Positions 13,312 to 55,704 of a stretch of 64,000 nt of DNA are shown piece by piece. A program made the translations under genes and the position numbers. The stretch lies in IMG/VR virus record IMGVR_UViG_3300032050_000011. One strand, given 5' to 3'. Position 1 is the first letter of the stretch; every line of letters begins with the position of its first letter. This DNA is from a virus. The notes under the pieces were generated by a model, which was not told the origin of the DNA, did not search any database, and worked only from the letters and a program-made list of their open reading frames with translations.

Positions 13312-13608
13312 TTAAAAATCGCCATCGTTACCAATATGCATGTTTCTTCTTAATCGCTCTTCTTCTGTAAGTGTGCTGTTAAACGACTTTCCATCGCCCC
13401 AGTCTTCTTCTTTATTGTCAACAAATTTATTAGCTTCAGAATACCACTTATTTAACTTATCTTGATACTCAGCTTCTGCCTTCTTTATCTGCTCTTCAGT
13501 CCTAACAAGATGACCAAATAGCTCTTCATCAGAAGCTTGCAGCTTTACGCGAGCGCTCTTCTTTAGTTGCTCTTCTTCTTTACTCCAGTCTGGCCACTGC
13601 TTGCTCAT
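13312..13608 (-). CDS. Hypothetical charged protein (possible head cargo)
   Basis: ORF; likely start MSKQW in TGATG overlap; LKKS and IKKA motifs. Confidence 0.65.
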   Translation of the reverse strand: MSKQWPDWSKEEEQLKKSARVKLQASDEELFGHLVRTEEQIKKAEAEYQDKLNKWYSEANKFVDNKEEDWGDGKSFNSTLTEEERLRRNMHIGNDGDF

Positions 13609-14054
13609 CAGCACTTCCATCTTCTGCGAGCTTTACAGGCACGCTTCTCTGGTGTTTTCTTGCAGTTTATATTATGCATGCGTATTTGGCCGCCATTTCT
13701 AGCACAGAAACTTCTTTTACGAGGTCCGCCACCTGGCTGCGGAGCTTTGAGGTTTCCGCCTGTAGCTTTATTGTATGAGGCTCTACCTGCGGCAGTAAGG
13801 CCACCTTTATCAGATTTGTGTTTTGCTTTTGGTGACCACTCTTTTTTCTCTAAGACTTCTTCATAGCCTTTGGCTAGTATAGATTTAACCAGAATATCTT
13901 CTGTTTTATCAGACACGTTTTCGCCTAACATAAGATCGATATCTTTGTTGTCAAATATCTCTACTTGTATGTGTGATTTTTCGAATTCTTCTAGATATGT
14001 TTTTCTATTTTTAGAATTCTTAGGCGCAACCTTGATCTTGCTGTCCTTATTCAT
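13608..14054 (-). CDS. DUF6321-like domain protein
   Basis: [23 protein letters not shown]...RKRSFCAR...ARRRWKC; probable start MNKDSK. Confidence 0.75.
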
Positions 14055-15468
14055 TTGAAGATTCCTTTTTGGACTTTTTCTCTTTAATTTTATTCTTAGC
14101 ATCTACTACCATCTGCTCTGCCTTTAGCGCTGCCTGATGTTGCTTTATTTGTAGATCTAACGCCATTTCTTTTTTAGCTCGCTCATACTCAAGATCTAGC
14201 ATACGCTTTTGATGTTCTGAATCATCTAGCTTAGAGGCTGGAATATCTTTTTTGGCTTTTTCTTGCTCTATTTCTCTTAATTTTCTTTTATGTTCTGAAT
14301 CATCTTCTGATTCTAGTTTTCTGCGCTCTTTTTCGTACTCAAGTTCAAGCATACGTTTCTTATGCTCTTGCTCTAGTTTCATTAGGGAGACTTTGTGATC
14401 GAGCTCTGCATTATTTAGCTTTTCATGGTGACCACTTTTTAAAGCATGATCTTTTTGCTTAATCTGCATCTCCATATCTTGTAGAGATAATTCACCCTGT
14501 CTTCTTGCTTGTTCAGTTTTTGCTTTCTCATCTGAGACTTGATCAATGTCTGGAAAATGATGCCCGTGCATTATAAACGCTATTTCAGCATCTGAGTGTC
14601 CAGATTGTTTTAGCATTTCTGCTATATCTTCAGGTGAAGGCTGTTGTTCACCATCGGCTTGTTGAGCCTGCATCATGGCTTGCTCTTCAGGTGAAGGCTG
14701 TTGTTCACCATCGGCTTGTTGAGCCTGCATCATGGCTTGCTCTTCAGGTGAAGGCTGTTGTTCACCATCGGCTTGTTGAGCCTGCATCATGGCTTGCTCT
14801 TCAGGTGAAGGCTGTTGTTCGCCATCGGCTTGTTGAGCCTGTATCATGGCTTGCTCTTCAGGTGAAGGCTGTTGTTCGCCATCGGCTTGTTGAGCCTGCT
14901 CCTCATCTTCATCTTGCATAGAATCTTCTATATCTAAGAATGCGTCGTCCGCCATTGCCTTCTTAAGCTTTATCCATTTGTCTTTAAGCTGCTTTAATGA
15001 AAAGTCGTAGTCCTGCTGTGAATCTTGATAATTAGATTGAGCAGCTCTTGCGCCAAATTTATCCAATTCTTCTTTGCCATAATCTAGCTCTTGCTTGCCA
15101 TCTGACTCTTTATCTATTCTTAACTTATCTTTTTTCTTTATCGACTTTTTGCTATTTTTTTCTATTTGTTTAAGCTTAATATAATAATCTTTATCCTCGC
15201 TAAGATGATCCATAGCTATTTCTTTGGCAATTTTTTTATTCTTAGTATGCTCGCGCTCCACTTTTGTACCTTGTCTTATAGCTCTGCTACTAAAATCTTT
15301 TTCTGTTTTTTTGTCTGCTAGTCCACCCTTAAGTTCATCTTTCTTGAGAGATTTTCCTGCTTTAGAATAAGCTATAGCAACTGCCTGTTTTTGTGGCTTA
15401 CCAGCTTCAACTTCTGTTTTTATATTTTCAGCAATAACTTCTTTGCTTGATCCTTGCTTAAGCGGCAT
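14047..15468 (-). CDS. Multi-module protein with DUF5661-like domain, Gln-rich repeat and coiled coil
   Basis: [16 protein letters not shown]...[10 protein letters not shown]; LKGGLAD...GTKVEREHT...[17 protein letters not shown]. Confidence 0.75.
14627..14899. repeat. 57-bp tandem repeat, ~4.8 copies ([19 protein letters not shown])
   Basis: Unit tcttcaggtgaaggctgttgttcaccatcggcttgttgagcctgcatcatggcttgc. Confidence 0.95.
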
Positions 15469-15477
15469 ACTTGTCCT

Positions 15478-16314
15478 CTAAAAGAAATCGATATTCCATC
15501 TTTTCTGATAATAACCTTTAATTGCGTCTTTTTGCATTTGTATAAGATCACCAAGATCTTTTATTCTTGCAGCTAAAAATTGAGGTCCTGGAGTGCCTAC
15601 TGACTGGCTTACTCCATCGATACTTACACCCACTGAGGTGTGCGGAAATATAAGCGGGCCGATAAAAGTTAGTATCTTATAAGCTGCTAAATTCTCTATT
15701 AGTTCAATTATAGCTGCGGGAACCTTGTCTTTCTCAAATCCTGCCTGATATTTTACCCTCACAGCTCCTGGAAAGTTATCTAGGCCGATAGCTCTTAGTG
15801 CATGAAACTGTGTACCAGAAAAAGCAGATAGTAAAAAACCAGATAAGCTAGTTCCAAATGCTGGAACAAGTTGCATGACGCCTTCTTGTGGCATAAGATG
15901 AACATGCTCCATTGGAAACTGAACAAAGCCTAGATTTGTTTGATCATTAGAGAAGCTTAGCTGTACTTCCTCTATTGATATAACATTCGGATGATTTAAC
16001 TTAAGATAATTATAGTTCCAATTAAACTCATGCCTATTGTAGTCATGTTTCTCTTCGAATGTTACCGGCGTTATGTATAAGTCCAGTTCATGTTCTATCT
16101 GAGATATCGCACTATCTATATAGTGCTTTATGGTGTCGTCTGAGATTGATTCATTAGTGAGCGCAGAGGTTAGCGGTATTCCAAATAGTGCTCGCTTCCT
16201 GAGATTTTCTGGAGTTGGAAGCGGCATATATCTTTCAAATGTTCCACTAGTATCTTGACCGTCTTTTGCCCATAACGGATAAAGTCCTACTCGTGGTGTT
16301 CTTGACATTGGCAT
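15478..16314 (-). CDS. Head-tail adaptor / neck protein
   Basis: IKHYIDSAISQIEHEL...VKYQAGF...VPAAI...SVGVSIDGVSQS pattern of myovirus neck proteins. Confidence 0.7.
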   Translation of the reverse strand: MPMSRTPRVGLYPLWAKDGQDTSGTFERYMPLPTPENLRKRALFGIPLTSALTNESISDDTIKHYIDSAISQIEHELDLYITPVTFEEKHDYNRHEFNWNYNYLKLNHPNVISIEEVQLSFSNDQTNLGFVQFPMEHVHLMPQEGVMQLVPAFGTSLSGFLLSAFSGTQFHALRAIGLDNFPGAVRVKYQAGFEKDKVPAAIIELIENLAAYKILTFIGPLIFPHTSVGVSIDGVSQSVGTPGPQFLAARIKDLGDLIQMQKDAIKGYYQKRWNIDFF

Positions 16315-17624
16315 TAATTACCACCGTTTTTTTTGATGCCCTGTACATGCTTTAATCTAGAAAGCTGCTCAGGTGCAAGTCTCTCTACTATTTTTTGCTG
16401 CAACTCTTTCACAAATTCTGGATTGGCTTGGCTTATCTTTAAGGCTGGATCTACTTTAGTGTTAACGTTAGTGCCTCTTCCTTCATCCTCTTTTATTCCG
16501 CCAGCGGACTGTGCAGCGCCTTCTTTTATAGACTTGGTTCCCTGTACAGAAGAAGCGTCGTCGTGTCCTTGAAAACTAAATAAATCATCTGCGCTTTCGC
16601 CAGAACTCATGCCTGCCGTTGCTACTTGTGCTTCGGCCTCTTGCCTTTTTTCATTTCTTAGTTTATTATTTTCTTTCGCTATCTGACTTACGCGATCTAC
16701 TGCTTCAATTTTTTTCTGACTATGTTGAGGATTATTTCTAGCAAAATCATGCTTAAACTTAATTATTAATTTTGTTTTTTCTTTTGGGTCGGTTATGTGT
16801 GCTATACTTTTATTATATTCTTCTAGTGCTTGATCTAGGTCTCCTCCTACCTCAGACATTATTTTATTTTTATTTGAGCTTAAGTGGAGTACAGGATTTT
16901 CTGACGGATCTGATAACAGGCCCGTTTTATGCTGATGATTAGATAGCCAACCAGTGGCGGCCTCTTTAAGATTTTGCAACATAGCAGAAGATGGCTCGCT
17001 AGGCTTTATTCCTCTTGAAATTATTTGATCATGTGTTAATATATCGTGAGCTCCAGCAAGTCTTTCTGCTTCTCTTGGACTATAGCCCTGACTTATAAAT
17101 TTCTTTATAGCTTCTACATGATGAGGTGCGTAACTACTTTTAGCTGACCATTCTGATCTACTTCCAGATGCAGCGGCAGTAGGCTTTTCAGCTACTGGCT
17201 GTTGAGTAGTGGGGTCAGCTTGCACTTTTTCCTGCTTAGGAGGAGCTTTCTGCTGTTGCTGTTGCTGTGATTGCCACTCACGAATAGCGCGCTCTTGCGC
17301 TGTGTCTTCTTCATCTGATTGCGAATAAGAAGGCTCTTCTTCATCATATTGCTCAGTGTTATCTTCATCTTCTGGATCTCTATCATAGGACTGCGGCGCA
17401 TCTTCATCTGAGAACTCATCGTCATATTGCTCTGGATTATCCAGACCGCCGCCTATTTGTCGCTCCCATAAACTTTGACCGTAATCTGAATCTTCATCGT
17501 CATCATACACTGCTTTAACAAAACGTTCTTCTATAGCATGAAAAAGTTCTGGATTGTTCTTAAATAGCTCGCTATTGTCTTTAATTTTTTTTGAAATTGA
17601 TCTTAATAGTTGCTCTATATTCAT
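16314..17624 (-). CDS. Hypothetical low-complexity protein, candidate internal head protein
   Basis: 436 aa; acidic and Gln tracts following FVKA. Confidence 0.7.
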   Translation of the reverse strand: MNIEQLLRSISKKIKDNSELFKNNPELFHAIEERFVKAVYDDDEDSDYGQSLWERQIGGGLDNPEQYDDEFSDEDAPQSYDRDPEDEDNTEQYDEEEPSYSQSDEEDTAQERAIREWQSQQQQQQKAPPKQEKVQADPTTQQPVAEKPTAAASGSRSEWSAKSSYAPHHVEAIKKFISQGYSPREAERLAGAHDILTHDQIISRGIKPSEPSSAMLQNLKEAATGWLSNHQHKTGLLSDPSENPVLHLSSNKNKIMSEVGGDLDQALEEYNKSIAHITDPKEKTKLIIKFKHDFARNNPQHSQKKIEAVDRVSQIAKENNKLRNEKRQEAEAQVATAGMSSGESADDLFSFQGHDDASSVQGTKSIKEGAAQSAGGIKEDEGRGTNVNTKVDPALKISQANPEFVKELQQKIVERLAPEQLSRLKHVQGIKKNGGN

Positions 17625-17625
17625 G

Positions 17626-18747: not shown

Positions 18748-18755
18748 GACATCTC

Positions 18756-19082: not shown

Positions 19083-19140
19083 CGTGACTCCTATATGGCC
19101 AATAATACTAGATTATTATACCAGAATAAAGAGCCAGAGA

Positions 19141-20769
19141 CTAGAGTCTATATTTGCCATTTATAGCATTTATAAGCTGACGTTGGCCATTAGAATAGAC
19201 TAGGCATGATGAGTTGAGCCAAGAACTCGGACCTATATTGTAGCCTAATTTTAATTTTGAACTTGTACCAACCTGCCAAGCACCGCGAAGTATCTCAGGT
19301 GAGTGGCTGTGCCCTGTGACCGAATTTCCATAAGCAAATTCCATAGACTGAAGCCCACCCCTGGCGCCATTGGCCCCCTTGTCTCCATGGGCACCTAGCT
19401 GTATTTCTGCTATGCGTAAATCTTGATCTCGCTTTAACCACTTGATTTTATTGATGCATTTAGGATCTAAATTGGCCATTACTTCTATGCCATAGCGCAA
19501 TGGATCTTCGCTTGTAGTAACGTAATGCAGCGCAAGCTCTAGAAAAGACTTATAGTTATACGGATCATTTTTAAAATCGCCACGCTGAAGAAATCTGTCT
19601 AGAAATTCATCATGATTAGATTTTACGACAACCACCTCATCTGCAAGCATAGTTAGATACTCTAGATCACGTGCTACAATATTCAATTCTTCGCGCAGAT
19701 TAAGTTGACCTAGTTCAGCACGTTTTGCCTTAGTGTCAATATTGTGAGCCTCATGGTGATTAATTGACTTGCCATCAAAAAGATCATGCATAACTAGTCG
19801 CTTTGGCTTAAGCGTTCTGCAGACGTCATCCCATACAATTTTAGTCATAGGACATGTGCTGCCTGAGTGCCAGTCGCCTAGAACAAAAGCCTCTGGTCTA
19901 ACTTTTTTTGTTGCGCCAGATGGCGAATACTCTACTCCAAGATCGATAAGTTTGCCATTATTGTCACATTGAAATTGCCTAAAATGATACTCATCTGAGT
20001 CGCCTATCTCTACTATTAGACCACCCATCACATGATCATAGGCGGCAATATATGCAGTACGATTAGACATATAGTTTGCAGATGTATAGTCAGGCACAGT
20101 TACAGCGCCTGTCGTCATGAGAAAGTGAGGCAATTTAGTATTAGATACAGGGCTAGACTTTAGTCGCTGCTTGGGCGATGCATATACAAAACTGCCCTCA
20201 CGCTGCCCTATTCGACCTAGACCGATTATAGGATCAATGTGCTTGGCAGCTAGCTTAATTGTAGAAAGAAATATATTTGAGTTTAACTCTGTATCTTCTA
20301 AAACAATAGCTTCATTAGTTAATCGCTTATCTACTCTGCCAAGCGATCCTCTGTCTAGATTAGAAGCAGGATCAGAGGCTATGAGTATTAGCAATGCTGC
20401 ATCATTTTTTTTACAATAAGACTTAACAGATTTATACATCTTATTATCAAGCTCACAGCCTGTAACAGCTGTTGTGATAACAAATTTTTTGTTGTTTGCT
20501 ACAGTTGATCGTAATTTATCTAGCTGTTGCTCGGTCATTAAATCTTCAATGTAAACATCTAGAAAACACCTAGGATACTTCCTACGAGCCTCTTCATCAA
20601 GATTAGACAGAGATCCGTAATGATGCTTGAGCATGTCTTTTGTATATTCTGTATTAGAAGTAAAGTCTTCTACACTAAGATCACAGCGCATCTTCTTACG
20701 AAGAGTCGCATAATCTCGCAGCATAGTCTTCTTCTTATCTGAGACGTTGTTTTGCTTATTAGTTGTCAT
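19141..20769 (-). CDS. A1: T5 A1-like metallophosphoesterase-fold nuclease
   Basis: KKFVITTA, TTGAVT..DY, GDWH, HDLFDG.SINHH, SNHD, HGDKGANGARG, GHSH, GYNIGPSSW, YSNGQRQLI match the T5 A1 motif order and length as I recall it. Confidence 0.8.
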   Translation of the reverse strand: MTTNKQNNVSDKKKTMLRDYATLRKKMRCDLSVEDFTSNTEYTKDMLKHHYGSLSNLDEEARRKYPRCFLDVYIEDLMTEQQLDKLRSTVANNKKFVITTAVTGCELDNKMYKSVKSYCKKNDAALLILIASDPASNLDRGSLGRVDKRLTNEAIVLEDTELNSNIFLSTIKLAAKHIDPIIGLGRIGQREGSFVYASPKQRLKSSPVSNTKLPHFLMTTGAVTVPDYTSANYMSNRTAYIAAYDHVMGGLIVEIGDSDEYHFRQFQCDNNGKLIDLGVEYSPSGATKKVRPEAFVLGDWHSGSTCPMTKIVWDDVCRTLKPKRLVMHDLFDGKSINHHEAHNIDTKAKRAELGQLNLREELNIVARDLEYLTMLADEVVVVKSNHDEFLDRFLQRGDFKNDPYNYKSFLELALHYVTTSEDPLRYGIEVMANLDPKCINKIKWLKRDQDLRIAEIQLGAHGDKGANGARGGLQSMEFAYGNSVTGHSHSPEILRGAWQVGTSSKLKLGYNIGPSSWLNSSCLVYSNGQRQLINAINGKYRL

Positions 20770-21645: not shown

Positions 21646-22506
21646 TTATGGTACTTTAGGGAGTTTTGTCTGAATAGTATCTGGTGTAGTTGGTACACTT
21701 GGAGATTCAGTTAATTTACTTTTTTTTCTTTTTGGCGTTTCTTCTCCGTGATTATTTTCGCCGTCAGTAAAGCTATTGAGTGTAAACGTATGAGATATCC
21801 AGGGTTTTCCATCTACATGATAGATATCTTGATCATTTGGGTCAACTTGTCCATGTGGAGAGTGGTGTATAGTTACTTTGTCTGGGTGCGAGAAGTCTAC
21901 CTGATAATCTTCACTTATGCCCTCTTTTATATACCTATTTAAACTATCTAATTTATTTTGCCTGTCATTAATCTGTGATGGATCTAGTAGTGAGCGTGAT
22001 TTCGGACTCAGACTTTCTTCAAGTAGCTCTTTATGATAATTGTTTGTAAATTTTTTCTGTAGATTAACTATATGTCGAGCTCTAAGAACGTGCTTCCTGG
22101 TTTCTTTATCATCGCGCTTAATTTTTTTAGTATTTGAGGTTAAGAAAAAACGTTCAGGGTCTTTATTTACTGCGTTTATAAGATTTGCATATATTTTACG
22201 CTGATTTGGAGTTACTTCCCTTCCTCCTCTTTTTTTAATTGTGTTATTTACACCTAAAAAAAATGTACCAAGTGTTTCTTTAATTTCTTGACTTATTCTT
22301 TCTTGATCTGCTTTGTTAGAGTGCCAATCGTACGCGCCTAAGCTATGATTCCATATTGGTGTGTATGGGCCGTTCGGATGCTTATCGTTCTTACTTACTG
22401 GAGGTTTAGCTTTTATTAAAAAATCTATGTAGTCTTCTCTAGAGATATGTAGTTTCTCAAGAGTTGAGTCTATATTTTTATGAAGGATCCAGTTGTTCCA
22501 ATTCAT
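21646..22506 (-). CDS. Hypothetical protein with WNNWILxKN leader
   Basis: Probable start MNWNNWILHKN (ATGA overlap); leader shared with neighbour. Confidence 0.7.
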   Translation of the reverse strand: MNWNNWILHKNIDSTLEKLHISREDYIDFLIKAKPPVSKNDKHPNGPYTPIWNHSLGAYDWHSNKADQERISQEIKETLGTFFLGVNNTIKKRGGREVTPNQRKIYANLINAVNKDPERFFLTSNTKKIKRDDKETRKHVLRARHIVNLQKKFTNNYHKELLEESLSPKSRSLLDPSQINDRQNKLDSLNRYIKEGISEDYQVDFSHPDKVTIHHSPHGQVDPNDQDIYHVDGKPWISHTFTLNSFTDGENNHGEETPKRKKSKLTESPSVPTTPDTIQTKLPKVP

Positions 22507-23027
22507 GGCTGAGTTGTCTTTGCTGCTATTGGCTGCCAATTATTGTTACTTAGCGAGTGAGTTGGTTCAGGCATCTTGCTGCCATAAGGAATCACGTGGG
22601 CCTTTATTGTTTTTTGACCACTGTTAAGTGCTTTCCACGCTCTATGCGAACCATCAGCTATATGATAACCACCATCTGCTTGACCCATTACTACGATAGG
22701 ATACTTTAGATCTGACGCTTCAGACCTTGTGTTAAACGCTGGTGAGTTTATGGGTTCATCTGCTTTAAATCCAGTGTGATTCTGAAACAAATGACTTAAA
22801 TGAGATAAATCAAAATCTTGCGCTGGATGATTCGACTGCGCGTGAGACACTAGCTGACCAACGTTCCAGCCTTTACCAGATTCATTATCTCCGTATACTT
22901 GATTTTTCCAGTCTATTTTGGCTAACTGATTAACTGTTTTAATATAGTCATTTTTAGATAAGCCTAGTTTATCTAGGGTAAATTCAGCATTTTTTTGAAG
23001 TATCCAGTTGTTCCAGTCGGTGCGCAT
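22503..23027 (-). CDS. WNNWILxKN leader + ParB/Srx-like domain
   Basis: YPIVV...YHIADGSHRAWKA...TIKAHVI. Confidence 0.75.
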   Translation of the reverse strand: MRTDWNNWILQKNAEFTLDKLGLSKNDYIKTVNQLAKIDWKNQVYGDNESGKGWNVGQLVSHAQSNHPAQDFDLSHLSHLFQNHTGFKADEPINSPAFNTRSEASDLKYPIVVMGQADGGYHIADGSHRAWKALNSGQKTIKAHVIPYGSKMPEPTHSLSNNNWQPIAAKTTQP

Positions 23028-23041
23028 ACTTTTTCTTCAAT

Positions 23042-23090: not shown

Positions 23091-24539
23091 CTATTTGCCT
23101 ACGTTTCTGAACAAGCAGTTGAATCGTGGAGTGTACACGAAAAGTGCTCCGTAAAGAACAATCGCGAACTCAAGTGCAGTCGTAACGATCGCAAAGTTGA
23201 TTTTAGAAAGAGGAGCAAGTTGCTTGAAGCGCATACATTCAGAAGACATGTCAAGTAGGAAAGCTTCGCCAAGACCAGCGCCTTTAGCACCAGAATCAGT
23301 TATGACTCCAGCGGACTTGTAATTTCCGATGAAAGCTTCAGAACCAGCAGCAGCACCAGCAGCACGACGATAAACTTTATAGAATTTAGCGCCCGATACA
23401 ACAGCTACATCAATCTGAGCAGATCCATTAGATTGAACAGTGATAGTGCCAGAAGTTGCTGGAGATCCTTCTCCGTGATCATTAACTGCAGTCACTGAGT
23501 AAACAAAATCTTCACCGCTAGTTAAAGATCCAACTGGGTTTGATGGAGCAACAGGGGCTGCTACAGAAGTTGGAGCAGCTGGAGCACCAGCGATACCTAC
23601 TGAACGAACTCGTCCACGCGGACGTAGGAAAAGATTCGGTTTGAACTCGATGCTACCAGCAGAAGTAGTCATCTTGCTTACATCGTAACCTACTGTTTGA
23701 TTGCTCAAACCTGGGTTAGATCTAAATTGAGGATAGAATTGTTTAATAAAAGAACTTAGAGCAAGTGGCTCAATATGAAGATCGCTTGGAGATCCAAAGT
23801 TCTCAAGAGCAATAACTGCTAGATCTTCTAGATCGTCCTGAGTAAGAACTGCACCAGCAAGATCTTTAGCGATAGAACGAGATTCGCCCCATCCTTCGAA
23901 TTCTTTTGATTTTTGTTGAGTATCTTCGTCACCTTTTAAAAGCTGCTGAAGAAGACCGTTCATGGCAATTGAATTTGCTGGAAGATCTGAAAGCGCACCG
24001 TCTTGAGCACCTGTAGCTGCATTAGCAAAGTGAGCATGACCCCAGTACATTTCGCGCTCAACACTCTTAAGAAGGTGCATTGTTCCTTCTTTTGCTTGTT
24101 GCGCAACAACATCACCAACAGTTGAACGAACCAATGTCATCTGGTGACTTACCTTACGGCGAGTACCAAAGAACACGATCCTTTGACCATCTCTGATGTA
24201 TGTTGAATCTTCTTCACGTGGTGCTCCACCTTCTCCGATATATGGAGATGAGTCAGAGCCGACGCCGATTAAACGGTTATATTGCTCGAATAGGTTATAA
24301 GCTTTGTCTACTGAAATAGCTGGCCACATTTTCAAGTTCTTCATGTCGAAAGTAACACTCTTAAGAGTACTTTCTAATGACTCAGCCTGAAGCACACCGC
24401 CATAAACTAGGTCAGTTGGTTTACCCGCACCGCCGTATCCAGCAGTGAGAGCCTTGTTAAGAGCCTCGATTTCTTCAGAAGATACAATCCCCTGCTCTAG
24501 CCCCTGATTGATTTGGTCTACAGTTTCGTTTCTGTACAT
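23091..24539 (-). CDS. Major capsid protein (Herelleviridae-like) with Ig/FN3-like insertion
   Basis: LNKALTAGYG...GGVLQAESLE, F.GEGG.P, EREMYWG, LAPLSKIN..YGAL; YSVTAVNDHGE...YKVYRR insertion; strong SD and terminator. Confidence 0.92.
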   Translation of the reverse strand: MYRNETVDQINQGLEQGIVSSEEIEALNKALTAGYGGAGKPTDLVYGGVLQAESLESTLKSVTFDMKNLKMWPAISVDKAYNLFEQYNRLIGVGSDSSPYIGEGGAPREEDSTYIRDGQRIVFFGTRRKVSHQMTLVRSTVGDVVAQQAKEGTMHLLKSVEREMYWGHAHFANAATGAQDGALSDLPANSIAMNGLLQQLLKGDEDTQQKSKEFEGWGESRSIAKDLAGAVLTQDDLEDLAVIALENFGSPSDLHIEPLALSSFIKQFYPQFRSNPGLSNQTVGYDVSKMTTSAGSIEFKPNLFLRPRGRVRSVGIAGAPAAPTSVAAPVAPSNPVGSLTSGEDFVYSVTAVNDHGEGSPATSGTITVQSNGSAQIDVAVVSGAKFYKVYRRAAGAAAGSEAFIGNYKSAGVITDSGAKGAGLGEAFLLDMSSECMRFKQLAPLSKINFAIVTTALEFAIVLYGALFVYTPRFNCLFRNVGK

Positions 24540-24555: not shown

Positions 24556-25236
24556 TTATCTCAGCCCGTATTTACTGGCAATTTCTACAACTGTTAAATC
24601 ATTACCTGTTTCAACTTTAAAAATGTCGGCAGAATCTACTTGTGTACCAGACTTTTTAAGTTCAAACAATTTATTAGCTACCTGCGACTTTGAAAGAGGC
24701 GCAATTTCCTCTTGTGACTTATGAAGAGGCGATACTCCTGCTGGAACTCCACGACGTTGAACTGGAGCATCAGCTATTGCCTCTACGATATTTACTAATC
24801 TAGAAATAGTTTTTTCTAGATCACCAATTTTCGAGTCAACATATGACTTCATGAGATCTTGAGTATCTCTGAGAGACTTTTTCATGTCCTCTTTTTTACT
24901 CATTTTTTTCTTATCCTCATCTTCGTCCTCATCTTCGTCTTCATCTTCGTCTTCATCTTCAGCTTTATCCATGCAGTCAGCCTTATCCATATCGTCTTCG
25001 GCCTTGTCCATGTCATCATCTCTTTCATCTTCTTCGTCTTCTTCTTCATCTTCGTCTTCGGCTTTTTTGGCTTCTAGTTTGCCATTTTTAGACTTGTCGG
25101 AAATTCCGCTCTTGTCATCGCCTAGAGAAATTTCTGAAGCTGCGAATTTAGATTTCTTAATCTCTTCAATTTCTTCAAGTGTTTCATCAATTAAAGAAGT
25201 GAGAGATTTTACCATTTCTTCGTTAGTGAATTCCAT
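24556..25236 (-). CDS. Capsid scaffolding protein
   Basis: Directly upstream of MCP; poly-ED tracts, repeated MDKA/MKKS, coiled coil. Confidence 0.7.
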   Translation of the reverse strand: MEFTNEEMVKSLTSLIDETLEEIEEIKKSKFAASEISLGDDKSGISDKSKNGKLEAKKAEDEDEEEDEEDERDDDMDKAEDDMDKADCMDKAEDEDEDEDEDEDEDEDKKKMSKKEDMKKSLRDTQDLMKSYVDSKIGDLEKTISRLVNIVEAIADAPVQRRGVPAGVSPLHKSQEEIAPLSKSQVANKLFELKKSGTQVDSADIFKVETGNDLTVVEIASKYGLR

Positions 25237-25267: not shown

Positions 25268-25618
25268 TTATTGGCCCATTCCGTTAAGATCAGCATGACC
25301 AGGCAATTCGCCAGCAGGAATAACTACTGTATTGGCATGGCCGCATACGATACGTAGAACCTGAAATTCAGCAATAGAAGCTGGATCTGTATCGAGCACG
25401 ATTTTTCCAGGATTGGCTACGCCGATCCCTAAAAAAGGAGACGCTGATGAATCAATTCCCATCATTGGGGATGTTGCTGGACTTAGCACAGCTGCATCTT
25501 CATAAGAAATTTCTATTCCTTCAGCAATAAGAAGATCAGCGCTAGGTCTAGATACTGAAAGACCTCTCTGCTGACAGTTTCTCTGGATTTTATCCAAAAT
25601 TTGTACGCTCATAGCCAT
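25268..25618 (-). CDS. Hypothetical head-operon protein
   Basis: SD AAGGAG; first gene of the scaffold/MCP unit. Confidence 0.7.
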   Translation of the reverse strand: MAMSVQILDKIQRNCQQRGLSVSRPSADLLIAEGIEISYEDAAVLSPATSPMMGIDSSASPFLGIGVANPGKIVLDTDPASIAEFQVLRIVCGHANTVVIPAGELPGHADLNGMGQ

Positions 25619-25745: not shown

Positions 25746-27311
25746 TTATGACTTTAATGAATTTATTCTATATAAACTAAAATTCTGCTTGCATTCTCTG
25801 CACTTTACCTGATGCGGCATAAAAACTTGCTCATGCCCGCAATTATCGCAAGAGATATAGTCTAAAGATTTACTCATGAGTTTATTTTTTAGTTTTTTTT
25901 TACGCTTAACGTCTAGACTCTGAGTTTGAATGACTCCGCCGCCAACCATATCTGTGGGTGCACCAGCTCCGCCGTAGCCTGCAAGTAGTGCTTTTTTAAG
26001 TTTTTTCTTGATCTTATTTCTTTTAACTTCTATATCCGCGGTAGCAGGGTTTTTTTCATCAAAACCATATTCTTTATTTGATAGTTTTATATTGTTGTCA
26101 CCCAGTCTAGAATTATGCTCTCTTGTTGTGTTATTTTTTTGAGATTCTAATTCTTTATGAATTTTTGTGGCATGATCTTTAACTTCAACCGGAGGTTGCG
26201 CAATATAGTGAGCCGCATGACCCATTGCTAAAGAAACTGCCAAGCCTTTTGCTGCTCTAGATACATCGCTCTTGTCCATGTCATCAGATTTAGCTATATG
26301 CGCATCATATAGTCTTCTTGCCTCGTTTACGTTTATCGATAAACCCTGAGGATGCGGAGTGTTTTTAAGCTTATTAATATAGTCTACCATCTGTTGGCGT
26401 TGTGGATGATCTTCTGGAATCTTGCCTTTGCTGTGCCATTGTGTCACAAAATCTGGATGCTGGAAACTTTGAGCGGTATTGACTGGGGTACTAAGTTTGC
26501 TAACGCCAGCAGCTCCGCCTATTAAGCCCATATGATTTATCTTCAATAGTTTGCTAAGTTCATTTATCTTGCGAATATTATTTTCAATTTTATTGAAAAC
26601 TGCATTCTTCATTATTACTTCTGGTTCTGGCAAATCTATGTCTACCTGTATACCAATTTTTGCTGAAAGTTCTTTTATTTTTATAATATTGTCGTGTATT
26701 GAGTTTGCGGAGGCATGGCGCTGTATATGCCTAAAAGAAGGCACATTAGTTTGTGCAAGATGCATAACTGACTTTATAAGTTGCTTGTCTGCTTCCCAGT
26801 CTATATTGCTCTTATTTATCTCTAGTGGCTCTACTAGAGTTGCATTGTTTGCTGGTGTAAAAGTAAGTGCTACTGAATGTATTTTTGTTCTAGCTAGTCT
26901 GGATGGATCACTGACTCCGCGAGCCATTACACCGCCCTCTACAGATGCCTTCATCACTAATGGCGCGTCTTCTCTATGTATATTTCTTAATATAGCTGCT
27001 GCAGCTTTTGCGTTAGGGTGATCTTCGTTGTTAAAGAGATAGCCCTTGGCATATATAAAAGGAGCCTTTATCTTATCCCAGTAATATCTATGTCTATCGT
27101 TGTCGCAGTCTTCTGACTTTAAAATTTTTTTAGCTTCAGTTACACGGCCAAGAGAATTAAAGAAGCCTTTACCATGATTATCGTTGAATCTGCCTCTGCC
27201 TTCTAGTAGATCTGCTATATCTGCGCCATCTACGCTAAGAGTTTCGCCCTGAGTATCTTTAAGCTCAGAACCAGCGCACATGTCAATCCACATCTTATTA
27301 TCTTTAGCCAT
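25746..27311 (-). CDS. Prohead protease with long C-terminal extension and Zn ribbon
   Basis: KDTQGETL, FNDNHG, ASVEGG, VALTFTPANNAT; C-term CDNC...CREC. Confidence 0.85.
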   Translation of the reverse strand: MAKDNKMWIDMCAGSELKDTQGETLSVDGADIADLLEGRGRFNDNHGKGFFNSLGRVTEAKKILKSEDCDNDRHRYYWDKIKAPFIYAKGYLFNNEDHPNAKAAAAILRNIHREDAPLVMKASVEGGVMARGVSDPSRLARTKIHSVALTFTPANNATLVEPLEINKSNIDWEADKQLIKSVMHLAQTNVPSFRHIQRHASANSIHDNIIKIKELSAKIGIQVDIDLPEPEVIMKNAVFNKIENNIRKINELSKLLKINHMGLIGGAAGVSKLSTPVNTAQSFQHPDFVTQWHSKGKIPEDHPQRQQMVDYINKLKNTPHPQGLSINVNEARRLYDAHIAKSDDMDKSDVSRAAKGLAVSLAMGHAAHYIAQPPVEVKDHATKIHKELESQKNNTTREHNSRLGDNNIKLSNKEYGFDEKNPATADIEVKRNKIKKKLKKALLAGYGGAGAPTDMVGGGVIQTQSLDVKRKKKLKNKLMSKSLDYISCDNCGHEQVFMPHQVKCRECKQNFSLYRINSLKS

Positions 27312-30354: not shown

Positions 30355-32196
30355 TTACTTTTCTCTTTGGCCATGCTGTATAGCGTTATAAGCCGCTTTA
30401 CCTTTTATTTCAGCCATGTCAGCGTCATGTTTTTCTTTATCTCTAGAGTGTTTTTGCTGTTCTAATTCTGCTTTCTGCTGTTCCTGCTGCTGTTGAGCTG
30501 CTAACTGCTGCTGCTGAGCAGCTGCTTGCTCTTTTTGAGCTTTCTGTTGCATTTTGCCTTGCTCAATCTGCATAAGCATCTGCTGCCAGCCCATAAATGA
30601 AGGATCGCCGGGAATATACTGGAGTTCTTGTTTTTTTGAAGCGCCTTTATCTCCAAGAAATAGCTCTCGTATTTCGCCTCTTGTCATGTTCTTTTCCACT
30701 ACGCCCCAAAATGCAGCGTTCATTGGTAGATCAGCTATCGGATGTTTTATGTGCTTCTTTCTAGCTGCAGATAGAAGATCGTTCATAGATTTATGAACAG
30801 CCATTTCTGCTTGCAACAATGCTACTTCTGTCTGTGGAGTTTCATCAGTGTAGCCTTCAAATTGAAATTTATATTTTTTAGGATAGTCTGGGTCTATAGC
30901 TGGCAGTATGCTAGAGTTTATAAAATCTTCTAGAAACATAAGCAGCGGATATAGACCTTTTTCTCTAGAGAATTCAATCTTAGTTTCATGACCTTGCTGA
31001 TTTACTGCACGACCGCCAGTAACGAGCAGATCAAGACCTAGTTCCATAGGATCTATCTGGAACTGCGAGCACACGGCACGCATAAGATGTGTATTGTAGT
31101 TTAAGTACTCCATCTCTTTTGAGCCACCAGCCATGGGAACCCACTGTACGTCTTCTAGGCCAGAGACTATAGGAGTTCGCCATGCATTTTGTGCGCCGTT
31201 TATAAGACTATAGAATTGCCTACGAAATGCAGTCATCTGTGCTTGCGTGACTGTTCCTTTTAGATGTAGTATTCCTTTTGCTGCTTGACCATGAGTAAAG
31301 AAGTTGGAGTTATAGTGCTCCGTATTCATATGGTTAGTTATATTTATTATGGCCATCTCTGTTGGAGAATAGCAGTAGCCATTGCCGTCTGCAAAATTCT
31401 GTGGGCTATAGAGTTTAAATATTAGATCTTCATCTCCAAATACTGCAAGGGGTCTGTTATCATAAGATACTTGTATATATTTATAGTAGTCTAGAGGCAG
31501 CTCGTTTACCACATAATTTTTTTTAGGGTCATTATCTGACTGCGATTTAAACGTATTCTTAACAGCCTTTATATGATCTTCGACTTGTGCTCTTGGTGCA
31601 TTTGTATTTATGTGATAAATGCTTTCTGCAGGAACTGGTCTGAACCTGTGTAGTGCACCTCTACGTGTTCTTATTTTCTCAACGGTTACATTTCCAAATG
31701 TAAGAGCATCTCTAACGATCATCTTTATGAAATCATTAAATAGCAATCTGTCATCGTCCGGCGTATTTGATATTCTGCCGCAATTATAGATAAAATCTTC
31801 TAAGTTGCTTATTTCTTTTTTTTCATCTGATGAATATTCTTCGGCATGATCTCGTTTAACTATGCGGTAACCAAGATCAAATTTTCTTGTTTGAGGCCTA
31901 GCAAATCTAGATAGAGTATCTACCCTATTCTGCACAATAGTGGATACTAGCCAGTCTCTCATAGAGACATCTTTTAGTGTCTTATTGGACAATCTTGAAA
32001 GTCTATATCTAAAGATAGTTTGCTGACTTTGTTGGGTAAAAAATGGATCAGCAACTATTGCTTTACGGCCTATCTCTGGATTATCATCGTCTGAAACTTC
32101 ATCGCGTTTTTCTGGTACTTGGTCTGCGTCGCCTTTATTTAACAGTTCAATTTCTCTGCGAACGCCATCTCGTATCCAATTATCCCAAAAGGCCAT
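30355..32196 (-). CDS. Portal protein
   Basis: IVRDALTFG, GYCYSPTE, NFFTHG...GILH, NAWRTPI, KEMEY, FQIDPMELG; adjacent to terminase. Confidence 0.9.
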   Translation of the reverse strand: MAFWDNWIRDGVRREIELLNKGDADQVPEKRDEVSDDDNPEIGRKAIVADPFFTQQSQQTIFRYRLSRLSNKTLKDVSMRDWLVSTIVQNRVDTLSRFARPQTRKFDLGYRIVKRDHAEEYSSDEKKEISNLEDFIYNCGRISNTPDDDRLLFNDFIKMIVRDALTFGNVTVEKIRTRRGALHRFRPVPAESIYHINTNAPRAQVEDHIKAVKNTFKSQSDNDPKKNYVVNELPLDYYKYIQVSYDNRPLAVFGDEDLIFKLYSPQNFADGNGYCYSPTEMAIINITNHMNTEHYNSNFFTHGQAAKGILHLKGTVTQAQMTAFRRQFYSLINGAQNAWRTPIVSGLEDVQWVPMAGGSKEMEYLNYNTHLMRAVCSQFQIDPMELGLDLLVTGGRAVNQQGHETKIEFSREKGLYPLLMFLEDFINSSILPAIDPDYPKKYKFQFEGYTDETPQTEVALLQAEMAVHKSMNDLLSAARKKHIKHPIADLPMNAAFWGVVEKNMTRGEIRELFLGDKGASKKQELQYIPGDPSFMGWQQMLMQIEQGKMQQKAQKEQAAAQQQQLAAQQQQEQQKAELEQQKHSRDKEKHDADMAEIKGKAAYNAIQHGQREK

Positions 32197-35207: not shown

Positions 35208-35236
35208 ATCTTCCTCATCTTATGATTATACCAAAA

Positions 35237-39541: not shown

Positions 39542-39601
39542 GATTTCTCCTTACTAGCACTAGTGCCATAGTTATTAACTGCCATTGTTGGCATGAATAT
39601 A

Positions 39602-45698: not shown

Positions 45699-46553
45699 TC
45701 AGTCCTCACTATTTACCCTAGGAGTGTTTTTAGTTTTACTTTTTTTTGTAGATTTTTTATATTTTATCTCTCTAATTATTTTTTTTCGTTGAGCATGCTG
45801 CTTTGGAGTAAGATCTGGAACCGCGTCCTTTCCAAACTGCTTTTGAGCTTCATTTCTGCCAAGAGTTACTTGCATCTGTTGAGCAACAGCTGGCGATGAA
45901 AATGGCTTATGTTTTAGTGGTTGCCCTATGCCGTTGTCACTAGAGGTTACTATATTGTCTTTTTTACTTTTTTTTACACTATTACATTCGCAATCAGAAC
46001 AATCACAATCTTTTTTCTTTATTGGTTGACAAGAGTCTTTTGCATATGCTTTTTTACCAGGCGTTGGCTCGTAGCCCTCCCAGCATCTTTTCTCTAAAAC
46101 TTCAATAGCTTTCTCTAGATTTTGCCTTAAGTTACTAGACTTATCTGCTTGCTGATTAGGTAATGATTTAGCTACTCCAACTAATTGTTGCTGCGCCTCT
46201 TTCATTCGTATATCTTTAATATCTTTATTTTTTGTCTGCTCAGCAGATTTAAGTGGATTTTTAGTAGATTTTGGCTTTATAGACGGTATTTTTATTTTAG
46301 AAGCAAAGGAGTTGTTGCCGGGTTTAGGCAGATAGTTTATAGTTGGCAAAACTGCGCCTCGTACTCTAACGCTTCCTGCGCCACCTAGTCCACTGTTGAG
46401 CATTGACTTATTCAGCGTCTCGTCTAATCTAGATATTTTTTCATCGTAATCTATTGAAATTGTAGATTTTTCCAGAGACAGCTCGTCATCAAGCAAGTTC
46501 TTCTCTAAAAGTTCTATTCTTTCTATTAGCGATAGTCTCATGGTATTCTCCAC
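45699..46553 (-). CDS. Lys-rich polyprotein-like candidate head cargo with CWEGY peptide
   Basis: LEKN, LEKS, LNKS, VAKS, LEKA motifs; RCWEGYEPTPGKKAYAKDSC. Confidence 0.7.
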   Translation of the reverse strand: MENTMRLSLIERIELLEKNLLDDELSLEKSTISIDYDEKISRLDETLNKSMLNSGLGGAGSVRVRGAVLPTINYLPKPGNNSFASKIKIPSIKPKSTKNPLKSAEQTKNKDIKDIRMKEAQQQLVGVAKSLPNQQADKSSNLRQNLEKAIEVLEKRCWEGYEPTPGKKAYAKDSCQPIKKKDCDCSDCECNSVKKSKKDNIVTSSDNGIGQPLKHKPFSSPAVAQQMQVTLGRNEAQKQFGKDAVPDLTPKQHAQRKKIIREIKYKKSTKKSKTKNTPRVNSED

Positions 46554-46583
46554 ACTACTGAAATTATACCATATTATAGGGCC

Positions 46584-48775: not shown

Positions 48776-48787
48776 TGGGGATTTATA

Positions 48788-49608: not shown

Positions 49609-49609
49609 A

Positions 49610-51283: not shown

Positions 51284-51284
51284 A

Positions 51285-51977: not shown

Positions 51978-51998
51978 TGTCAGATTATTATACTTATA

Positions 51999-52430: not shown

Positions 52431-52570
52431 GCTTACTCCTATTATGAGGAGATTATACAGCAGCTAAAAAAATAGTCTAGTTAAGATACTAATACAGTAC
52501 TAGACTAGTATGGTGGGCAGTCTAGTGTATTTTACCTAAGACATTAAAAAAAAATTAAAAAAATGAATAA

Positions 52571-52828: not shown

Positions 52829-52829
52829 A

Positions 52830-53285: not shown

Positions 53286-53316
53286 AGAATACCTCTAGGC
53301 CATATTCTATCATTTA

Positions 53317-54075
53317 CTAGAGCTTATGATATCTCTTAAAAGCGTCCATTGCTCTATTGAAAACACTTTGAGCATGCTCTTCTTCTTTTTCAATAGTGTC
53401 ATCTTCATCTTCGAGATCCTGCGCTTTCTCGTAAGCATCCCAGGTATGGTCAACATGCTTATCTAAAACGGGATCTGTATGCTGTCTATAATCAACCGTG
53501 TCTTTTTCATCCACATCTTCCATAGCACCTTTACCAGGATTGACTAAGTCCATCGCTTCAGCATGAACTTTTTTGTTGTGCTTTCCAAAATTTAAGCCAG
53601 TATATTCACTAGGCGTGCCACCTCTTCCATGATAATTTCTTAATATACCTTCAACTGCATCTAGACCACCATGATGGTCATGTATATCTTTAAGATCTCT
53701 AACACCATCTAGATGATGGCCTATCATATCATCAAAATCGCTGCTGGATCTAGGTGTGACATTAAACGCATGACCTATATCTATAGATCCCTTGGGAGCT
53801 TTTTTTAAAAAGTCAAGAATATCTTCTTGTGGTTGATTGTTAGCTAGCATACTATCTAGTGTTGCTCTATTCTTAGCTTGTAAATGTTTATTGGGATTAG
53901 TGTAGGCTTGCAATCCATCGCACCAGTCATAGTGCATATGAGGAGCTGCTGTATGATGAGCTCCGCAGTTGCAAGCGCCTTTAGGGACTTGCTTATTTAC
54001 AAAAGCTTTTCTTAGCAGCTGCCATTGGCCATTGTCTGAGGTTTTAAGTAGTTCTCTGATTATTTTAAAACTCAT
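53317..54075 (-). CDS. Paralog trio member 1 (leader + CxC..H..HxxWC motif + shared core)
   Basis: MSFKIIRELLKT..NGQW.L.KA leader; KAPKGSID, HLDGVRDLKDIHDHHGG. Confidence 0.85.
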   Translation of the reverse strand: MSFKIIRELLKTSDNGQWQLLRKAFVNKQVPKGACNCGAHHTAAPHMHYDWCDGLQAYTNPNKHLQAKNRATLDSMLANNQPQEDILDFLKKAPKGSIDIGHAFNVTPRSSSDFDDMIGHHLDGVRDLKDIHDHHGGLDAVEGILRNYHGRGGTPSEYTGLNFGKHNKKVHAEAMDLVNPGKGAMEDVDEKDTVDYRQHTDPVLDKHVDHTWDAYEKAQDLEDEDDTIEKEEEHAQSVFNRAMDAFKRYHKL

Positions 54076-54089
54076 GTTAAATCATCTTT

Positions 54090-54902
54090 TTATAGTCTAT
54101 GATACTTCTTAAAAGTATCCATTGCTCTGTGAATAACTTTGTCTTGATGAGCATCAAATCCTGGATGTCCGGATTTAAAATCTGGACCAACTTCTTCCAT
54201 AACATTTGACCAACTATCTGCAACTTCTTTATTTAGACCCTGATCAAAGTGCGGTTCATACTGTATTCTTTTAGATGGATCGAGTTCTGTACCGTCGTCT
54301 TCTTTTATGCTGAATCTCGGATCATGCATCCATTTACCTTTTCCAGGATACATTATATCATTGGATTCTGCAATAATCTTCTGATTGTGCTTTCCTAAAT
54401 GTAAAGGAATATACGTGCTTTCTCCTCCGTGCCCATGATAATTTCTTAATATACCTTCAACTGCATCTAGACCACCATGATGGTCATGTATATCTTTAAG
54501 ATCTCTAACGCCATCTAGATGATGATTTAGGCTATCTAAAAAGTCACTTTGATCTGTAATATGTTTTAGGCTAGGATTTTTTTTAATTTTATCAAATACG
54601 TGACCAAAGTCTATTGAACCTTTAGGGGCTTTTTTAATGAAATCTGTTACATTAGAACTAGGAGCTCCGCCTTTACTCGCTAAGTCCATCATGTCATCTA
54701 GTGCTATTTTATTTTTAGTTTGCAATACTTTATTAGGATTTTTATAGCTATCAGGGTGAAATGCACTACCCATTGTAGGATAGGCTGATCTTAGATTTTT
54801 AGCTGGAGTTGATTGATCTTCATCTTTAACCCATGCTTTTTCTAGAGACCATTGACCATTAGGTGCAGTTTTAAGTAGTTCTCTTATTATTTTAAAACTC
54901 AT
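54090..54902 (-). CDS. Paralog trio member 2 (lacks Cys/His motif)
   Basis: Same leader and core. Confidence 0.85.
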   Translation of the reverse strand: MSFKIIRELLKTAPNGQWSLEKAWVKDEDQSTPAKNLRSAYPTMGSAFHPDSYKNPNKVLQTKNKIALDDMMDLASKGGAPSSNVTDFIKKAPKGSIDFGHVFDKIKKNPSLKHITDQSDFLDSLNHHLDGVRDLKDIHDHHGGLDAVEGILRNYHGHGGESTYIPLHLGKHNQKIIAESNDIMYPGKGKWMHDPRFSIKEDDGTELDPSKRIQYEPHFDQGLNKEVADSWSNVMEEVGPDFKSGHPGFDAHQDKVIHRAMDTFKKYHRL

Positions 54903-54918
54903 GTTAAATCATCTTTTT

Positions 54919-55704
54919 TTATAGTTTATGATATTTCCTAAAAGCATCCATTGCTCTTTTGATAGCGGCTCTTCCATGAGCTTTGAAAGCCTGCTCATCA
55001 AAATTATCACCGCCAGTAGCTTTATTATGTGCGTCTATCACTTCATCATTAATTGCAGGATCTATGTGCCCGCCATAGTTAGGTCGATCCCGCGGATCAG
55101 GATTTTGGTCGTCGTATTCGAAAGTACCTTTACCCGGCCAAACTAGATCCATCGCTTCAGCATGAATTTTCTTGTTGTTCTTTCCAAAATTTAAACCACT
55201 ATATTCACTAGGAATGCCGTTTGCTCCATGATAATGCTTTAGTATACCCTCAACTGCGTCTAGTCCACCATGATTGTCATGAATATCTTTCATATCTTTA
55301 ACACCATCTAGATGGCGATTTAGATGATCCATAAAATCACTACTTCTAACTAGTTTTTTAATTTTTTCAGAAGGATCATTTTTAGCTCTGCGAAAAATAT
55401 CGCCAAAATCTACTGAACCTTTAGGTGCTTTACTTAGAATATCATGAAGATCACCGCTGTCACCTGCTTGCACGTACTTGTCCAGCGCATTACTGATATC
55501 TTTTTTACTTTTCTCTCTAGCAAGTTTAAGAGGATCTTGTAGTCCATCACACCAGTCATAGTGCATATTAGGCGCGGCTGTATGCTGAGCCCCGCAGTTA
55601 CAGGCATGTTTAGGGATCGATTGGTTTACAAAGGCTTTTCTTAGCAACTGCCATTGACCATTATTTGAAGTTTTAAGTAGTTCTTTGATTATTTTAAAAC
55701 TCAT
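54919..55704 (-). CDS. Paralog trio member 3
   Basis: Same leader, Cys/His motif and core; ends RAMDAFRKYHKL. Confidence 0.85.
   Translation of the reverse strand: MSFKIIKELLKTSNNGQWQLLRKAFVNQSIPKHACNCGAQHTAAPNMHYDWCDGLQDPLKLAREKSKKDISNALDKYVQAGDSGDLHDILSKAPKGSVDFGDIFRRAKNDPSEKIKKLVRSSDFMDHLNRHLDGVKDMKDIHDNHGGLDAVEGILKHYHGANGIPSEYSGLNFGKNNKKIHAEAMDLVWPGKGTFEYDDQNPDPRDRPNYGGHIDPAINDEVIDAHNKATGGDNFDEQAFKAHGRAAIKRAMDAFRKYHKL

Follow-up and report, generated by a model that had tools for sequence, protein, structure and literature searches.

In herpesviruses, the products of UL26 and UL26.5, a protease-scaffold pair, have a common C-terminal tail, which serves to bind the major capsid protein (MCP) and which is removed by cleavage at the M-site. 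Within the Herelleviridae, capsid proteins of the A511 type are said to mature at K|S before FTTGYG, and no literature stating the head cleavage sites or the mature MCP N-terminus of this family was found. Phage HK97 reportedly incorporates its protease gp4 into the prohead by means of the C-terminal part of the enzyme, an observation credited to Duda et al. in 2013, and we know of no MCP-like segment in the gp4 tail. The HK97 capsid protein gp5 is cut at K103/S104 (PMC10275583), and in phage T4 the capsid-targeting sequences on the internal proteins IPI-III and Alt are removed by gp21 (PMC9026906). Here, a 64,000-nt stretch of the IMG/VR virus record IMGVR_UViG_3300032050_000011 (the window), which spans the regions for head, replication and tail in an uncultured phage of ~165 kb and has nearly all genes on the minus strand, was analyzed with regard to a motif of its head proteins, hydrophobic-x-Lys|Ala/Ser/Gly. 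This motif is probably the cleavage signature of an assemblin/HK97-fold prohead serine protease in a head module of the SPO1 type, and the comparison of orthologs points to a real Lys-specific head-maturation system.

The head genes of the window follow each other in the order large terminase (32246-34171), portal (30355..32196; Pfam Phage_portal, E 5.5e-19), six small genes, protease (25746..27311; 521 aa), a gene for a 116-aa protein, scaffold (24556..25236; 226 aa) and MCP (23091..24539; 482 aa; PHROG 752, E 4e-56), with the protease gene lying between portal and scaffold/MCP and all of them on the minus strand. The MCP shows 28-30% identity to MCPs of SPO1-like Herelleviridae (tblastn, E 1e-47 to 1e-54, 96-98% of the query), and hundreds of closer MCP relatives with 64-95% identity are present on uncultured contigs of up to 160-185 kb. 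For comparison, 80 related loci and three complete relatives (G001, which is syntenic with the window, G003 and G004) were used, and the comparison with the Herelleviridae concerns the head module rather than genome-wide relatedness. The SPO1 module (portal gp3.1, protease gp3.2, scaffold gp3.3 and MCP gp6.1) has a homologous MCP and the same gene order and likewise displays a high density of hydrophobic-x-K|S/A in scaffold and protease, an LNK|A boundary in the MCP and a copy of the MCP N-arm in the protease tail. Unlike SPO1, the window has six extra genes between portal and protease, a Lys-poor 116-aa gene between protease and scaffold, a protease of 521 as compared to ~256 aa with a C-terminal zinc ribbon, and ~7 kb of extra genes between MCP and adaptor, while most of its relatives possess a transglycosylase insert in the protease tail.

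The lysine motif in the head module

Each protein of the window was compared with 1000 composition-preserving shuffles of itself. The narrow form of the motif, [LMI]xK[AS], was detected ten times in the scaffold (0.73 expected, P<0.001) and seven times in the protease (1.47 expected, P<0.001), and significant enrichment among the window proteins was limited to these two. Replication enzymes were at expectation (DNA polymerase, three vs 2.9; SbcC-like protein, three vs 2.0), and the same holds for the terminase (two vs 1.1). A previous interpretation of the letters and open reading frames (ORFs), here called the sequence-only reading, had listed such tetrapeptides in scaffold, protease, MCP, portal, three paralogs at 53317..55704 (the trio) and the genes 21646, 16314 and 45699, all of which are indeed present, and had attributed them to a Lys-keyed prohead protease acting on the scaffold, its own tail, the MCP propeptide and the portal N-terminus, a view to which Lys specificity and positional conservation lend support. 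Its expectation that the motif would exceed composition-matched controls and replication enzymes was borne out for scaffold and protease, but not for the dispersed genes which it had included.

The enrichment is also seen in the orthologs, with 455 sites vs 56 expected over 59 scaffold ORFs (eight-fold) and 195 vs 53 expected over 37 protease ORFs. In 50 distinct scaffold orthologs, 452 of the 1921 Lys residues (23.5%) are found in the motif context, i.e., with a hydrophobic residue at P3 and Ala, Ser or Gly at P1', as compared to 14 of 212 Arg (6.6%), 41 of 1787 Glu (2.3%), 33 of 1497 Asp and 5 of 205 Gln residues; the Glu value of 2.3% against 23.5% for Lys speaks against cleavage after Glu as known for T4 gp21. 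The scaffold of the window contains MVKS, IKKS, MDKA (three times), MKKS, LMKS, LHKS, LSKS and LKKS, and seven scaffold sites (K10, K28, K120, K130, K173, K183 and K195) are fixed in position in nearly all of 30 aligned orthologs, whereas the acidic tracts between the conserved sites vary freely. The predicted MCP propeptide comprises aa 1-29 (24453-24539) with the boundary EALNK|ALTAGYG at K29, and all of 120 homologs share L-x-K-A in front of (I/L)TAGYG. Furthermore, the 21 N-terminal residues of the portal protein end in LNK|G (K21; 32134-32196). Of 53 portal orthologs, 47 retain L-x-K|small at this place, with P2 free, and a hypervariable insert follows directly.

Five cultured members of the Herelleviridae display the same pattern. 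In SPO1, CP-51 and the Exiguobacterium phage EalM-132, the scaffold contains 11-14 sites vs ~1.3 expected and the protease 8-9 vs ~1.4, and their MCPs read DALNK|AL(E/S)AG(H/Y), which in SPO1 is DALNK|ALEAGH. Staphylococcus phage SA3 has seven scaffold sites vs 1.3 expected, six protease sites vs 1.5 and VVK|SFQTGYG in the MCP, and for Listeria phage LMSP-25 the values are three vs 1.5, four vs 1.2 and ALK|SFTTGYG, in agreement with the K|S before FTTGYG named above. Since the pattern recurs in these five phages, the Lys-specific system appears to be ordinary and not a special invention of the phage analyzed here. Following this, hydrophobic-x-K|A/S/G may serve as a rule for predicting the mature ends of head proteins in a large uncultured clade and apparently also in the Herelleviridae, a family with Staphylococcus and Listeria phages that serve in therapy and biocontrol.

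We propose that the protease cleaves the scaffold at some seven conserved and a number of variable sites and removes the 29-residue MCP propeptide as well as ~21 residues of the portal protein. The enzyme would resemble HK97 gp4, the model of this type of protease, in being an assemblin-fold prohead protease that cuts after Lys before Ser. In HK97, however, the scaffold is a delta domain fused to the MCP, whereas the scaffold studied here is a separate protein, predicted to be cut multiple times, which is accompanied by a short MCP propeptide.

Two further proteins come into consideration as substrates. The first, of 436 aa (16314..17624, minus strand), is encoded in the conserved structural block directly before the head-tail adaptor gene (15478-16314; PHROG 772 and 442) and starts with a leader of ~37 residues ending in FVK|A (K37), which is followed by an acidic disordered tract. 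Of 20 orthologs, which have a mean identity of 21%, 15 retain the motif, with Leu or Phe at P3 in 17 of 20 and P2 free, and K37 and A38, ranking 15th and 10th of 436 columns, are the sole conserved columns in the first 200 residues. It is the best candidate for an additional substrate of the protease, which probably removes the leader. The second, a charged protein of 473 aa (14047..15468, minus strand) whose gene adjoins that of the head-tail adaptor, consists of an N-terminal PHROG 2423 module, DUF5661, the sequence WIKLKK|A with K170, an acidic tract and five tandem 19-aa repeats (14560-14850, aa ~190-280). W165 and K169 do not vary, 10 of 14 orthologs retain the motif, and P1' is Ala in six, Gly in three, Glu in two, and Ser, Thr and Arg in one each. 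This protein is the weaker candidate and is perhaps cut.

The 116-aa protein encoded between protease and scaffold (25268-25618) contains 1.7% Lys, and among 79 orthologs the motif is strongly depleted (1 observed vs 14.5 expected). Conceivably, it is a head component which has to withstand the protease.

The protease, its fold and the N-arm copy in its tail

The protease possesses motif sites at K167 (INKS), K341 (IAKS), K347 (MDKS), K440 (LKKA) and K481 (MSKS) and also at K180. A domain of predicted assemblin fold at residues ~1-195 is followed by a long tail which harbors K341, K347, K440 and K481, and the two invariant LxK|S sites of the self-cleavage type, K167 and K180, lie behind the catalytic domain; it is there that the protease would free itself. 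Sequence searches yielded a weak match of residues 87-159 to PHROG 1028, annotated as head maturation protease (E 9.6e-6). Structural comparison of residues 1-195 in the model of an ortholog (L048) with the proteases of varicella-zoster virus (VZV), pseudorabies virus (PRV), herpes simplex virus (HSV), Kaposi's sarcoma-associated herpesvirus (KSHV) and human cytomegalovirus (HCMV) gave Z values of 5.5-6.8 at a root-mean-square deviation (rmsd) of 3.4-5.1 over 112-137 residues, and Foldseek matched the protease domain of the same model with a probability of ~0.8 (E 0.02). Among the candidates for the catalytic His and Ser, H46, H98, H112, S15, S123, S181 and S192 are invariant in 30 protease orthologs. 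At the C-terminus, a CxxC...CxxC zinc ribbon (25782..25850, minus strand) was found, whose four Cys residues are invariant in the 30 orthologs and which matches S27e and RPABC4 zinc ribbons weakly at profile level; it is absent from the five Herelleviridae proteases read and is unusual for a prohead protease.

Directly after the cleavage motif at K440, the tail contains a copy of ~30 residues of the MCP N-arm (25902..26006, minus strand; aa 436-470): LKK|ALLAGYGGAGAPTD...GGVIQTQSL in the protease as compared to LNK|ALTAGYGGAGKPTD...GGVLQAESL in the MCP. This copy is present in all 30 aligned orthologs, with K440 and A441 invariant and the AGYGG...P...Q block nearly so. Moreover, it co-varies with the MCP N-arm of the same phage in the clade studied here, the Spounavirinae, Kayvirus and the Listeria phage (SPO1, CP-51, EalM-132, SA3 and LMSP-25). 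No paper describing an N-arm copy in a protease tail was found. That the copy changes together with the MCP in four lineages speaks for a binding partner common to both, and because the scaffold contacts of P22 and T7 have been placed near the spine helix and N-arm in work on HK97 (PMC10275583), the protease may dock where the capsid N-arm docks. Most likely, the copy would let the tail bind at the N-arm site, be it on the scaffold or on a neighboring subunit, and the docked tail would build the protease and anything inserted in the tail into the prohead. This suggests a concrete mechanism for protease incorporation. In herpesviruses, a protease of the same fold likewise enters the procapsid by way of a tail segment which is tied in specificity to the capsid protein and flanked by a cleavage site. 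There, however, the tail is common to protease and scaffold and binds the MCP, whereas the tail described here copies the N-arm of the MCP itself, which would imply competition or mimicry.

In the clade of relatives, the protease tail carries an extra functional domain which would enter the head with it. The tail contains an inserted lytic transglycosylase of family 1 in 26 of 30 aligned orthologs (L048:6881-8560 and 25 other loci). In the L048 model, residues 298-480 match Cj0843, Slt, Slt70 and MltE with Z values of 10.2-11.8 (rmsd 2.8-3.9 over 131-152 residues) and chain 7k5c_B of the T7 ejectosome with Z 6.6, and the SLT fold is accompanied by a Glu-Ser pair, with Glu kept in 26 of 26 and the next Ser in 25 or 26 of 26 domain-bearing sequences. 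An Ala/Gly-rich hydrophobic segment precedes the domain, and it is bracketed by motif sites kept in 21 of 29 and 29 of 29 sequences, the 29 including three orthologs that do not have it. In an ortholog bearing the SLT fold, Pfam finds no domain at this place. We suggest that the piece built into the prohead in most relatives would be this transglycosylase, positioned between two conserved sites. The arrangement is reminiscent of T7 gp16, an internal core protein with an N-terminal lytic transglycosylase, in that the enzyme would be carried in the capsid for infection; unlike in gp16, the domain of the relatives is an insert between two sites of a protease tail and not part of a dedicated core protein. 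Such a tail makes the idea of cargo reasonable in kind, yet not for the gene list given by the sequence-only reading. The protease of the window itself is devoid of the lytic transglycosylase, and no copy is present elsewhere in the window.

As a further observation on this gene, the protease gene of G004 (133546-135391) and of the loci L031, L035, L037, L044, L046, L051 and L065 is oriented opposite to the remaining head genes, and in three of them (G004, L031 and L065) the protease is short and the next gene bears the NGQW tag described below.

Several points weigh against the assignment of the motif to an assemblin/HK97-fold prohead protease of the MEROPS S78/U35-like kind. Cleavage is predicted from the sequences of an uncultured phage, and docking of the protease by way of its N-arm copy is a hypothesis. 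Pfam detected no protease family in the protein at E<=0.01, and its profile, compared with the sequences of the PDB, gave no protease match and only weak zinc-ribbon matches. The assemblin match is moderate (Z<7) and was obtained with the model of an ortholog that is 59% identical over the domain, not with the window protein. Moreover, the enrichment in the LMSP-25 scaffold is weak, and the MCP has three more motif matches (K79, K158 and K202) which are presumably not cut, so that the tetrapeptide alone does not define a site.

Candidate loaded proteins and rival explanations

The trio (53317..55704, minus strand) comprises three paralogs of 252, 270 and 261 aa which are 51-59% identical over their full length and consist of the tag ELLKTxxNGQWxLxK|A, with the junctions LRKA or LEKA, and a helical domain. 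In the window, the tag is limited to these three proteins, whereas in the relatives it heads or joins unrelated proteins and is also internal in many. From 84 distinct instances in relatives, the consensus E-psi-psi-K-x-x-x-N-G-Q-W-x-L-x-K was derived, which is followed by Ser, Ala or Gly in 41 of 84, more than twice a rough background estimate of ~19%. Three variants are informative with respect to the junction: the homolog P0231 has no tag and starts exactly after LxK|A, in the homolog P0230 a second LEK|A, located directly before the conserved body, closes an insert of 25 residues, and a trio homolog of 29% identity in L035 keeps LGK|S. Taken together, they indicate that the trio junction is a real module boundary carrying the protease motif.

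The body of the trio proteins (residues 60-252) was modelled as a confident helical domain and the tag region as helix plus hairpin with low confidence. For the helical domain no fold match was obtained, the best Foldseek hit having an E value of 0.8 and the best VIA-align hit a Z value of 6.1, which reflects generic helices. An HD-type phosphohydrolase, guessed from the motif DIHDHH, was considered, and nothing in support of it was found. Peptide-pattern searches of IMG/VR for trio relatives found none; the homologs came from the protein database. A complex prediction of the tag (aa 1-60) with protease (1-260) and scaffold reached a score of 0.08 and a mark of 0.32 in the absence of controls and speaks neither for nor against binding. 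The trio is located behind a Pol-beta-type nucleotidyltransferase gene (55708-56241) in the replication/lysis gene run and not among the late genes. This gene and a trio-family gene travel as a cassette, also seen at 12815-14318 of L035, and in L035 and L037 the pair lies directly after the capsid gene, adjoining a GIY-YIG-like gene.

The gene 45699 (45699..46553, minus strand) encodes a modular, Lys-rich protein of 284 aa with LEKS, LNKS and LEKA and a CWEGY module after VLEK|R. Its leader together with LNK|SMLNSGLGGAGS...VLP (46314-46421) resembles the MCP N-arm. G[YL]GG occurs in only three window proteins, namely MCP, protease tail and 45699, and is preceded by L-x-K-[AS] in all three. At least 23 of the 99 members of the 45699 family have retained the block LxK[SAGT]MxNxGLGGAGS...VLP. 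Comparison of the 45699 profile with the MCP profile by hhalign yielded a sole match, to MCP residues 22-52, with 43% identity, E 0.011 and a probability of 3.9%. The likeness of the leader to the capsid N-arm is suggestive only. A TGGTATAAT box (extended -10) is present 10 nt upstream of the gene.

Based on these observations, a Lys-keyed code for capsid loading may tentatively be envisaged, which would use two address devices, the N-arm copy after a cleavage site and the NGQW hairpin tag ending in L-x-K|small. It is possible, although doubtful, that the N-arm copy of the protease tail, and in a weaker form the leader of the 45699 family, docks its bearer into the prohead, and equally uncertain that domains behind or between the devices are packaged, cut free and delivered with the DNA, the candidates being the transglycosylase of the relatives and the trio. 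For trio and 45699, loading appears plausible from their junctions and leaders. If this proposal is true, the N-arm copy explains how Herelleviridae proteases generally enter proheads. If the NGQW tag is a loading signal, T4-style packaging of cargo would be extended to another protease specificity and capsid lineage, and the tag could be used to bring foreign proteins into such capsids. As in T4, the address would be a short N-terminal one ending in the motif of the head protease itself (L-x-K here, with LxK|A in the trio), which in T4 sits on unrelated proteins traveling in the capsid. However, T4 cuts after Glu (L/I-x-E), whereas here the cut is predicted after Lys; the NGQW tag is longer than the T4 leader (~17 aa, helix plus hairpin), unrelated to it in sequence and often internal; and packaging, demonstrated for the T4 proteins, is a prediction for those described here.

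Alternatively, trio, 45699 family and NGQW proteins might stay in the cytoplasm without being packaged, as decoys or competitors which present pieces of the phage capsid to the protease or to immune sensors of the host, or as regulators, in which case L-x-K would be part of a beta-hairpin structure. The internal position of the tag in many proteins, the fact that only 49% of the tags are followed by Ser, Ala or Gly, the co-transcription of the trio with early or middle-type genes and the low-confidence helix plus hairpin are in line with such a role. Contrarily, the homolog without tag and the LEK|A restored in the insertion variant are more easily reconciled with a tag that is removed than with a fixed element of the structure, the frequency of small residues after the tag Lys is more than twice the rough background, and the N-arm copy of the protease, which alone has an evident link to assembly, is conserved between the Herelleviridae and this clade. 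We regard an exclusively cytoplasmic role as rather unlikely.

The sequence-only reading had gone further and regarded about ten dispersed genes (13312, 13608, 14047, 16314, 21646, 45699, the trio and others) as encoding loaded, Lys-cleaved and injected effectors, a Lys-keyed analogue of the T4 system. This we consider improbable. Its nine candidate genes indeed contain 14 narrow sites vs 6.2 expected; however, they were picked for having the motif, six of the 14 sites stem from three paralogs, and the other 58 non-head genes have 35 sites vs 30.6 expected. The 67 non-head proteins pooled contain 49 narrow sites vs 37.3 expected and 83 sites of the broad motif vs 79.8. In their first 40 residues 12 sites were counted vs 5.7 expected, but eight of these come from two paralog families, five from a tandem array at 4858-10534 and three from the trio, and counting a single member of each family leaves 6 vs 5.4. 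The motif is thus at chance frequency outside the head core and does not mark these genes, and in the window the tetrapeptide otherwise recurs mostly by chance. The portable NGQW tag on unrelated proteins, with its L-x-K end and the small residue next to it in 41 of 84, the trio junction behaving as a module boundary, the MCP-like leader of 45699 with its extended -10 box, the transglycosylase loaded by relatives through the protease tail, and the short protease followed by a tagged gene in three loci are all in favor of some cargo. Against a dispersed set, the genes 21646, 22503, 13312 and 13608 and the trio are absent from the three complete relatives, the trio belongs to the replication/lysis operon rather than to the late genes, and the 45699 ortholog of the syntenic G001 has no GLGGAG block.

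The individual junctions gave a similar picture. The proposed position of the motif at leader or domain boundaries agrees with 16314, trio and 45699 and weakly with 14047, whereas it could not be upheld for the accessory genes other than the trio. In 21646, LIK|A (K43) is one site vs 0.5 expected and not distinguishable from chance; this gene and 22503 (21646..23027, minus strand; 297 and 174 aa), located behind the MCP gene, have a single full-length ortholog among the fetched loci. The sites of the two small genes for a 102-aa protein and a 164-aa protein with DUF6321 (13312..14102, minus strand; E 3.6e-17) are poorly conserved, being kept in between one of four and six of eight orthologs. 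Likewise, the small modules said to start directly after L-x-K (DUF6321-like, DUF5661-like and CWEGY) have Lys, Asp or Arg at P1', not Ala or Ser. An extension to cargo is plausible for the protease tail and 16314, may apply to trio, 45699 and 14047, and finds no support for the rest.

Finally, the possibility that the scaffold, as a Lys-, Ser- and Leu-rich protein, owes its motif density simply to composition or to helix/coiled-coil periodicity is very improbable and largely refuted by the controls: scaffolds are indeed rich in Lys (13-16%) and largely helical, and the three MDKA are part of a short tandem repeat, but composition-preserving shuffles give 0.73 sites against ten observed, the context is specific to Lys (23.5% vs 6.6% for Arg and ~2% for Glu, Asp and Gln), the sites are fixed in position while their flanks diverge, and the same tetrapeptide recurs at the MCP propeptide boundary, as in LK|SFTTGYG of LMSP-25.

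Accessory genes and sequence boxes

Between the capsid and adaptor genes, the conserved structural block also encodes a protein of 542 aa (19141-20769) which matches PHROG 1745, annotated as DNA transfer protein (E 5e-100). It contains VVK|SNHDEF (K383), kept in 20 of 22 orthologs. This sequence resembles what we take to be a catalytic, metallophosphatase-like motif; since it is conserved nevertheless, conservation alone is not enough to predict a cleavage site, and its use as the sole criterion was dropped because of K383.

The five tandem paralogs at 4858-10534 share the N-terminal module MPIITKP...LDK[SA]ALAA, while their C-terminal parts are divergent. The N-termini of portal (FWDNWI, 32134-32196), 21646 (NWNNWIL, 22470-22539) and 22503 (DWNNWIL, 22990-23027) have W-x-N-W-I in common, and in these three proteins L-x-K comes ~10 residues after it.

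With respect to promoter elements, AACAGATTCGATAW had no match in the window with up to two mismatches allowed. In contrast, 12 TGNTATAAT boxes were found vs 6.4 expected, and several of them lie directly upstream of minus-strand gene starts, including those of 45699, the 18756 structural block and packaging genes (46563-46571, 19115-19123, 35225-35233, 39601-39609 and 10954-10962, minus strand).

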